Shown here: in pieces, positions 19,046-20,039 of the stretch
Numbering within the stretch: the first letter of the stretch is position 1
How the letters are laid out: each line of letters starts with the position of its first letter
DNA from: Gemmatimonadota bacterium
GTDB lineage: Bacteria > Gemmatimonadota > Gemmatimonadetes > Palauibacterales > Palauibacteraceae
Reading direction: 5' to 3'
Length of the DNA: 64,000 bases
NCBI GenBank assembly: GCA_963666735.1
Contig: OY762926.1
Span: 2,880,001 to 2,944,000, forward strand
Program-made: the position numbers and the translations under genes
The notes under the pieces: model-generated
The model's database searches: none
What the model was told of the DNA's origin: nothing
The model's input: the letters and a program-made list of their open reading frames with translations, nothing else

Positions 19046-20039
19046 ATGATCGACATCCTGGCGGACTCGCCAGACGACGGGGCGCTCATCGCAAGAGCCA
19101 TCGGTAGCGACACACGGGTCCTGAACAATTCCGTTCGGTTCGCGAACGGCGGCGCCCATGCCGAGTGTCGGATCCTGGGTTGCCGCCATCCGATTCAGGC
19201 GGAGCGAATCGAACTCGTGCGAAAGATCGAGCGTGACGCGCCGTGGGTTCCCGTCATCCTCGTGACGGATCACGCGCCCGGCGTTGCTCACCGGCTGTGC
19301 GATATCAGGGTGGCGGCCGTCGTCTGGTACCCGGACGTCCGAACCGAACTCGAGCCCCGGATCGTCGCCGTCAAGCAATCGGTCCCGCTCCTGCGCCTGG
19401 CCAAACAGGTGGAGGAAGCGAAGCTGCCTCCTGCCCTTCGATCCGGACTGGCGTACAGCTTGCGCGCCGCCACCCGCCGACCCGTGCGCGGCTTGAAGGC
19501 GTTGGCGGACGCCGTTCACATCTCTCCCATCACTCTGTCCCACGAGTTCCGGAAGAGTGCCGGCGGGGCGGCAAACCTGAGCCAGTTCCTCAGCGCCCTC
19601 ACGGTCCTGAAGGCCCAGGAGCTTCGTCTCTCGGGTTTGAGCTGGGACGTGGTGGCCGGACGCCTGGGGTTCGCGCGTCAGACCCTCCACAACAAATCGA
19701 CCCGCTGGCCGGGCAGCACGCTCAAACAACTCGCGCGTACGCGCCAAGCGCCGCCTGGAAGTCGACCGATGGCGGCGAGAGCTGGACCCAAACAACTCGC
19801 GCGTACGCGCCAAGCGCCGCCCCGGGTCGGCGAGCGGTGAGCCGGCAGGCGGAGGCGGCAAACAACTCGCGCGTACGCGCCAAACGCCGCCTGCGGCCCG
19901 GAGCGGGGGCGGTGGGCGACCAGTTCGGCACAAACAACTCGCGCGTACGCGCCAAGCGCCGCTGCTCGCAAAGTTCATCTCCGATTTCTCGAAACCGCTG
20001 CTCCGTACCAGTGACGCGGACCGTCCACCGATTTCTTGA
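19046..20039 (+). pseudogene. Receiver-like/AraC-type HTH transcription regulator interrupted by a repeat-spacer array
   Basis: AAGGAG RBS; WVPVILVTD receiver-like segment; two HTH-like segments (LKALADAVHISPITLSHEF, SWDVVAGRLGFARQTLH); current ORF stops at 19840 in spacer 2, and the frame of repeat 4 continues PLLAKFISDFSKPLL... to TGA at 20039. Confidence 0.65.
19723..19962. CRISPR. Orphan CRISPR-like array: 4 x 32-bp repeat CAAACAACTCGCGCGTACGCGCCAAGCGCCGC with 3 unique spacers (34, 38, 40 bp)
   Basis: Repeats at 19723-19754, 19789-19820, 19859-19890 (1 mismatch) and 19931-19962; internal 12-bp palindrome GCGCGTACGCGC; no cas genes in the window. Confidence 0.75.

Follow-up and report, generated by a model that had tools for sequence, protein, structure and literature searches.

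A gene for an AraC-like regulator in a Gemmatimonadota genome carries, close to its end, four copies of a 32-bp repeat separated by three spacer-sized segments. The locus raises the question of how a CRISPR-like array came to lie inside a coding sequence, away from the cas genes of the same genome, and how the cell tolerates spacers that match its own genes. The genome (G000) consists of a single contig (C1) of 3.98 Mb with 68% GC, and the window, i.e., the whole stretch of 64,000 nucleotides that was analyzed, corresponds to G000:C1:2880001-2944000.

Organization of the array and its host gene

The preliminary description had delimited the array and translated two of its spacers, and both the coordinates and the translations were found to be correct (Table 1), spacer 1 reading WKSTDGGESWT and spacer 3 reading LRPGAGAVGDQFG. 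The Asp-box pointed out in spacer 1 was likewise borne out, and such a motif was present in just 47 of 200,000 random genomic 34-mers. As also described, spacer 2 contains GTGA, the spacers are GC-rich (68, 84, and 80%), and all three begin with C, whereas repeat 4 is followed by T. The resemblance of spacer 3 to the FG-GAP gene at 4962-7310 (-) stood in part: LRPAEGVATEGFG is indeed present in that gene, but the gene is only a paralogue of the spacer 3 source. The spacers, of 34, 38, and 40 nt, compare with spacers of 35–42 nt in the resident arrays A and B, and the perfect palindrome occupies the exact center of the duplicated segment (10 + 12 + 10).

Table 1. Features of the array locus, with positions given in the window
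Feature	Position	Strand	Remarks
Host gene, AraC-like regulator (HTH_18 below cut-off), protein P0069	19046..19840	+	264 aa as now read
Match to far end of repeat A	19719..19725	-	7/7 bases; four bases outside the duplication
Repeat 1, 32 bp	19723..19754		Codons for KQLARTRQAP; central 12-bp palindrome at 19733-19744
Spacer 1, 34 nt	19755..19788	+	34/34 to G000:C1:1818310-1818343 (-)
Repeat 2	19789..19820		Same sequence as repeat 1
Spacer 2, 38 nt	19821..19858		Holds the stop ending the host ORF; no source found
Repeat 3	19859..19890		Single G>A change at 19884
Spacer 3, 40 nt	19891..19930	+	37/40 to G000:C1:3412397-3412436 (+)
Repeat 4	19931..19962		Same sequence as repeat 1
Mimic of system A leader-repeat junction	19955..19966	-	10/12 bases; register exact with the right edge of the duplication
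Cut-off C-terminal tail of host gene, LLAKFISDFSKPLL...PPIS, then stop	19963..20039	+	Frame still open

The host ORF extends across the first two repeats and spacer 1 and ends at a TGA within spacer 2, and the array duplication truncates the C-terminus of the host protein. Its HTH_18 match (E 2e-5) is under the cut-off, and its named homologues are from Gemmatimonadota, several of them labelled Candidatus Palauibacter. The tail that follows repeat 4 keeps the original frame and is near-identical to the tail of intact orthologues. An empty site, in which a single copy of the repeat sequence is joined directly to the tail, was identified in five related genomes (G008, G002, G043, G006, and G020). 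Similarly, 5 of the 9 members of the 90% protein cluster containing the window's protein are intact, with KQL.RTRQAP running directly into LLAKFISDFSKPLL and with 216–220 of 236 residues identical to the window's protein (about 92%); 2 of the remaining members are array alleles and 2 are otherwise broken. Since the sequence is single-copy in the relatives and its edges are identical, the repeat represents a target-site duplication made three times. The array was seen in 1 of 36 genomes of the genus and was absent from the other 35 searched.

The cell would cope with the damage because the insertion comes after the HTH and because relatives, too, have broken copies of the gene; the regulator gene is one that the clade can lose. 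The nearest genome (G017:C4:2894203, locus L028) is without ~700 bases corresponding to window positions 19459-20174, so that the end of the HTH and the insertion site are gone. Units 1 and 3 of the array (66 and 72 bp) preserve the host frame, and unit 2 (70 bp) alone disrupts it; hence, an allele with spacer 3 only, such as that of run X4 described below, would still yield a full-length protein, with 24 residues inserted.

Sources of the spacers and variation among strains

When the spacers were compared with the genome and with viral sequences, as the preliminary description had proposed, chromosomal hits were obtained for spacers 1 and 3, and neither spacer was found in viral contigs. Spacer 1 matches the coding strand of a 1,159-aa Sortilin-Vps10/BNR ORF and spacer 3 the coding strand of an 838-aa FG-GAP/LVIVD ORF. 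Among the 36 genus genomes, the exact spacer 1 sequence occurs in G000 only, with two mismatches in 9 of the 35 others, and spacer 3 is found within three mismatches in G000 only. Two of the mismatches between spacer 3 and its target are internal and affect third codon positions without altering the peptide; the third is the last base, which is the base present in the G041 and G014 orthologues of the gene. The synonymous nature of the changes points to another allele of the FG-GAP gene as the source, and we infer that spacer 3 was probably taken from an ancestral or kin-strain allele rather than altered by random decay.

The view that the spacers are self-derived thus holds for spacers 1 and 3 and does not extend to spacer 2. 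The best ungapped match of spacer 2 elsewhere in its own genome is 29/38, its 28-nt core allowing 3 mismatches is present in none of the 35 other genus genomes, and exact 23–25-nt patterns from it were not found in viral, genome, or metagenome contigs. No phage match was obtained, a plasmid match of 79% over 64 nt was weak and judged to be due to chance, and none of the eight runs examined contained a contig leading away from spacer 2. The array repeat was likewise not found in metagenome contigs, the collection possibly leaving out records close to its own.

Self-matching spacers account for 2 of 3 in the new array, compared with none of the 78 in arrays A and B (Fisher p 0.0009), and the fewest mismatches between any of the latter (n = 78) and the rest of the genome is nine. 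Both matched targets belong to the Vps10/BNR (1.44%) and FG-GAP (0.68%) families, which together make up 2.1% of the chromosome; this is above uniform sampling, for two targets and a category picked afterwards. Conservation of the Vps10/BNR and FG-GAP genes makes matches easier to spot, and frequent allele replacement may furnish free DNA ends in them.

Strain variation was assessed in 8 of 20 listed runs, belonging to four studies. All their contigs are short, and the array is not spanned by any of them. Some of the runs in which the locus occurs carry the label sponge metagenome, and the source sample itself may be among those with the best matches. All three spacers were present in five of the eight runs (X2, X3, X5, X6, and X7), and in X2, the repeat had a depth of 95 against 33 and 32 for the flanks. 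Run X9 contained spacer 2 only (repeat depth 18.5, flanks 9–10) and X4 spacer 3 only; the repeat depth of 55 in X4, against flanks of 19–25, makes a further unseen unit possible. Contigs of X8 lead from the left flank through one repeat into spacer 2, after which cover is lost. A separately deposited allele without spacer 1 is represented by protein P0075, which is identical to the window's protein over 236 residues and then continues directly into spacer 2.

The runs without spacer 1 (X4, X8, and X9) carry a different Vps10 allele, which differs at the first base of spacer 1, whereas X2, X3, and X5 carry the Vps10 allele matching it. Judged from these sequences, the pattern fits an acquisition of spacer 1 from the chromosome of its own lineage, and either a gain at the left end or a loss in the other lineage would take one event. 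The Vps10/BNR target (G000:C1:1818310 region) shows several changes adjoining the protospacer in X4, X8, and X9. The regulator locus of X4 is unchanged over 303 bases while its Vps10/BNR allele differs. The allele data suggest that secreted-protein genes may undergo allele replacement between strains.

Candidate integrase and competence of the array

The genome harbors two type I-G systems. System A (C1:150-162 kb) comprises Cas7g, Csb2, Cas3g, separate Cas4 and Cas1, Cas2, and 50 repeats of 37 nt, and system B (C1:1.249-1.260 Mb) comprises Csb2, Cas3g, a Cas4/1 fusion, Cas2, and 30 repeats of 36 nt; both Cas3g genes are free of internal stops. The cas1 genes are located >1.6 Mb from the array, whose flanks are coding sequence. 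Inspection of the insertion site revealed a mimic of the system A leader-repeat junction at the right edge of the duplication, with four bases only on the leader side, and the last seven bases of repeat A recur 36 bp from it. The empty site scores 17/19 (10/12 + 7/7), which is the best score in the genome outside array A: among ~7.95 million positions, none reaches 17 and one reaches 16, the mimic windows having been picked after the site was seen. The junction alone is matched at 10/12 or better at 183 other positions. The alignment score of the empty site to repeat A was equalled by 0.64% of 5,000 random 52-mers, and repeat B and an I-E-like stub gave background scores against the same site. 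Comparison of the site with the arrays of 11 relatives placed two A-family repeats on top, with scores of 28 and 26 (others ≤21). The new repeat itself is identical to the start of repeat A at 14 of 32 positions, and in the site as in repeat A, the cut is preceded at a distance of four bases by the motif GTTG, a likeness spotted after the fact.

It is likely that the locus is a natural neo-CRISPR array that arose by repeated off-target Cas1-Cas2 integration within the regulator gene. A single-copy site has been duplicated, and the genome encodes resident cas1-cas2 for which the site is junction-like by a post hoc test. The integrase was probably the Cas4/Cas1/Cas2 of system A, attracted by the junction mimic. 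The duplication of 32 bp is 4–5 bp shorter than the repeats of systems A (37) and B (36) and thus unequal to the cognate length, which weakens the case for system A more than the case for the neo-array class. The chances are about even that the second cut fell at 32 rather than 37 bp owing to differing internal anchor motifs, e.g., GTTG. cas1 was detected in nine of the 36 genus genomes; the five with an empty site, which are kin and hence non-independent, were not among them. Exact and 25-of-28 scans of G000 revealed no other scars of this kind, although older decayed scars would escape them; the other matches in these scans were LRR/coiled-coil coding repeats, tRNA pieces, tandem repeats, and the I-E-like stub.

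In such a sequence of events, the type I-G Cas1-Cas2 would mistake 32 bases of the regulator gene for a leader-repeat junction, and spacer-sized DNA would be inserted there three times, two of the pieces matching chromosomal genes of the species. Units would be gained and lost through further integration and through recombination between repeats. The polarity is awkward for a leader on the right, as spacer 3 should then be the newest and yet has three mismatches; spacer 1, by contrast, is an exact match and is missing in three of the eight runs.

The same type of event could have been carried out by another integrase with a native 32-bp repeat, belonging to a lost or transient system (e.g., type I-C-like), which we consider improbable. 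The constant duplication of 32 bp in all four copies would be accounted for in this way, the genome is rated 94% complete, and the leftover I-E-like stub indicates that CRISPR systems come and go in it. However, the cas1 loci of the 11 relatives have no 32-bp repeat (lengths 28–37), and the junction of system A is matched by the site in exact register. The sole type I-C Cas1 over the cut-off among 145 genomes of the order, in G014, is accompanied by a 33-bp repeat that agrees with the site at 11 of 32 positions, i.e., at background, and type I-C as the integrase was rejected as far as tested.

Several other repeat-bearing loci were observed in the genome and its relatives. The I-E-like stub (G000:C1:3125502-3125591) has two repeats in a genome without a type I-E cas1, and long arrays in G014 and G051 contain 28-nt repeats akin to it. 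G000 (C1:149763-149880, L085) and G010 (L083) each have a mini-array of two degenerate A-type repeats, with a similar spacer, just upstream of the adjoining type I-G operon; we take this mini-array to resemble autoregulatory mini-arrays, and its target search within the surrounding 3 kb gave just an 11/12 match inside cas7g. In G014, two solitary A-type repeats (G014:C3:2357704 and 2375013; L081 and L084) are present 17 kb apart, one of them abutting a tRNA-end-like sequence, and the arrays beside cas1 in that genome carry repeats other than A-type; possibly, an element was inserted into a small array. A second, stand-alone gene for the Csb2 C-terminal (Cas6-like) part is located next to array B (G000:C1:1254920-1255651).

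With regard to competence, the new array shares regular repeats and spacer size with functional type I-G arrays, while the repeat hairpin, the TTN PAM, a leader, and adjacent cas genes were not found. Repeats A and B form 8-bp stems near -17 kcal/mol (A, -17.1), whereas the new 32-nt repeat is without the long GC hairpin of the 36–37-nt resident repeats and reaches -6.7/-9.7. Csb2 is described as binding and cutting at the repeat hairpin in the available text of 10.1101/2022.08.08.503147, and type I-G interference in Geobacter is described as requiring a TTN PAM in that of PMC6547450. TTN was found 5' of neither of the two targets, in either orientation and with duplications of 30–32 bp, TTN being the PAM of Geobacter and maybe not that of systems A and B. 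No protospacers of system A were obtained from the array search of 36 genomes or from 2 of its 49 spacers compared with viral contigs. The initial C of the spacers had been regarded as possibly PAM-derived, but in both targets, this base belongs to the protospacer itself, and alignment of the target flanks gave no common motif. Three initial Cs at 34% C amount to about a 4% event; in the orientation of system A, they correspond to terminal Gs, and 24 of the 49 A spacers end in G.

Either the lack of the hairpin or that of TTN would spare the cell despite its two Cas3g genes. It is quite likely that the array makes no working guide RNA, because the 8-bp hairpin is absent and the targets are without TTN, and that self spacers, which a real array would be expected to lose, survive here for this reason. 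Hence, the earlier proposal that the spacers are tolerated in a non-interfering array is likely to be right, as we infer from the missing hairpin and TTN beside two uninterrupted Cas3g genes.

The preliminary description had offered, as another possibility, that the spacers guide regulation of secreted repeat-protein genes; the array would then have taken on a regulatory role, tuning these genes through RNAs that guide Cascade or pair directly. Both matched targets do fall within the Vps10/BNR and FG-GAP families, and array contigs in X5 and X6 are 2–4 times deeper than the flanks, a hint only, as contig depth cannot rank genes (in X5, array contigs 1,000–1,225, flanks 304 and 461, and the FG-GAP target contig 8.5, >100x lower). 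This depth could reflect RNA, local amplification, or library bias, and none of the runs containing the locus, X5 and X6 included, is recorded as RNA. On the other hand, hairpin and TTN PAM are missing, the array has no Rfam match (none at the gathering score in the window, with 4 chance-level hits), it is confined to one of the genus genomes with a spacer content that varies by strain, and the targets lie mid-gene, inside coding regions and not near a promoter. Moreover, in a host-gene transcript, the spacers would be of the same strand sense as the mRNAs of the targets. No sigma-70-like promoter was detected in 18700-20500, which is a weak test at 68% GC. With sense-strand spacers, strain-variable content, and no positive evidence, a regulatory role appears very improbable.

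A non-Cas origin (break repair, illegitimate recombination, or a reverse transcriptase at the palindrome) or an assembly artefact is extremely improbable: the perfect 12-bp palindrome centered in the duplication, the coding-strand sense of both matched spacers, and two group II intron-like reverse transcriptases in the genome would suit it, but three spacer-sized inserts with identical 32-bp edges are unexpected from repair, RT-linked acquisition was rejected with neither reverse transcriptase near a cas1, and the reproduction of the repeat-spacer junctions in short-read contigs from four studies rules out a single-assembly artefact.

Off-target integration by the resident Cas1-Cas2 can be extended to a more far-reaching proposal, which we regard as speculative and rather doubtful. 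The integrase may have founded a growing in-gene array, in which the new 32-bp repeat is used again and again at a cryptic ruler position, with abundant transcription of the locus; being interference-free, the array would record unfiltered Cas1-Cas2 input skewed to beta-propeller genes. If true, this input would include alleles from kin, the genes being fast-recombining and secreted and the host a wild uncultured symbiont, and the locus would be the birth of a new repeat family caught in the act and a natural DNA recorder.

Comparison with known systems

In the literature searched, which covered titles and abstract openings and few subscription papers, no natural in-gene neo-array was encountered; Nivala 2018 and Shmakov 2020 may contain cases. 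Off-target integration as a natural source of new arrays is called unclear in the available text of 10.1101/148544. The present locus is of modest scope, being one small and probably functionless site. It nevertheless brings together, for one locus, the likely integrase and its unoccupied target site, along with the source genes and several alleles from different strains. It also shows self DNA acquired in the wild and visible only where the array cannot kill (2/3 vs. 0/78), and it offers a ready-made substrate on which to study how repeat length is fixed by type I-G integrases.

Isolated arrays have been ascribed to three proposed origins, one of which is off-target acquisition (Shmakov et al., 2020, as presented in PMC13142298). 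Similar to such isolated or orphan arrays, as far as they are characterized there, the present array is remote from the cas genes that its genome does contain, but its repeat is host coding sequence and no copy of the resident repeat. With the empty site in hand, transfer or loss of cas genes is excluded as its origin.

The determinants of the integration site have parallels in other systems. The Cas1-Cas2 of Pyrococcus furiosus carried out full integration in vitro at a site 43% identical to the repeat (available text of PMC6698737). As at the non-CRISPR sites reported in that work, leader-repeat junction bases would direct integration here, and integration at inner repeats lacking a leader is described there as well; however, the P. 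furiosus spacing stays at the repeat length of 30–31 bp, and here it is shorter. Internal anchors that reset the repeat size have been described for Haloarcula type I-B (PMC4872114) and E. coli type I-E (PMC5039180), where, as would be so in our case, the aberrant duplication begins at the leader junction and extends to a point dictated by an internal anchor. The cases given in the accessible text of these two sources are engineered mutants of the repeat, shifted by -1 to +3 bp, whereas the present case is natural and of type I-G, and its candidate anchor is a guess.

The closest likeness is with the neo-CRISPR arrays formed by off-target integration of the E. coli type I-E system (Nivala, Shipman and Church, 2018, as summarized in 10.1101/148544 and PMC7054753). 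As described there, spacer-sized DNA is integrated at a repeat-like chromosomal site off the cas genes, and the site is duplicated. Unlike those arrays, which were obtained under Cas1-Cas2 overexpression, the present one is natural and of type I-G, shows three successive insertions at one site, has a duplication 4–5 bp below the resident repeats, and is polymorphic among wild strains. The type I-G setting, the three hits at one site, the short duplication, and the strain alleles are thus the distinguishing features of the present locus.
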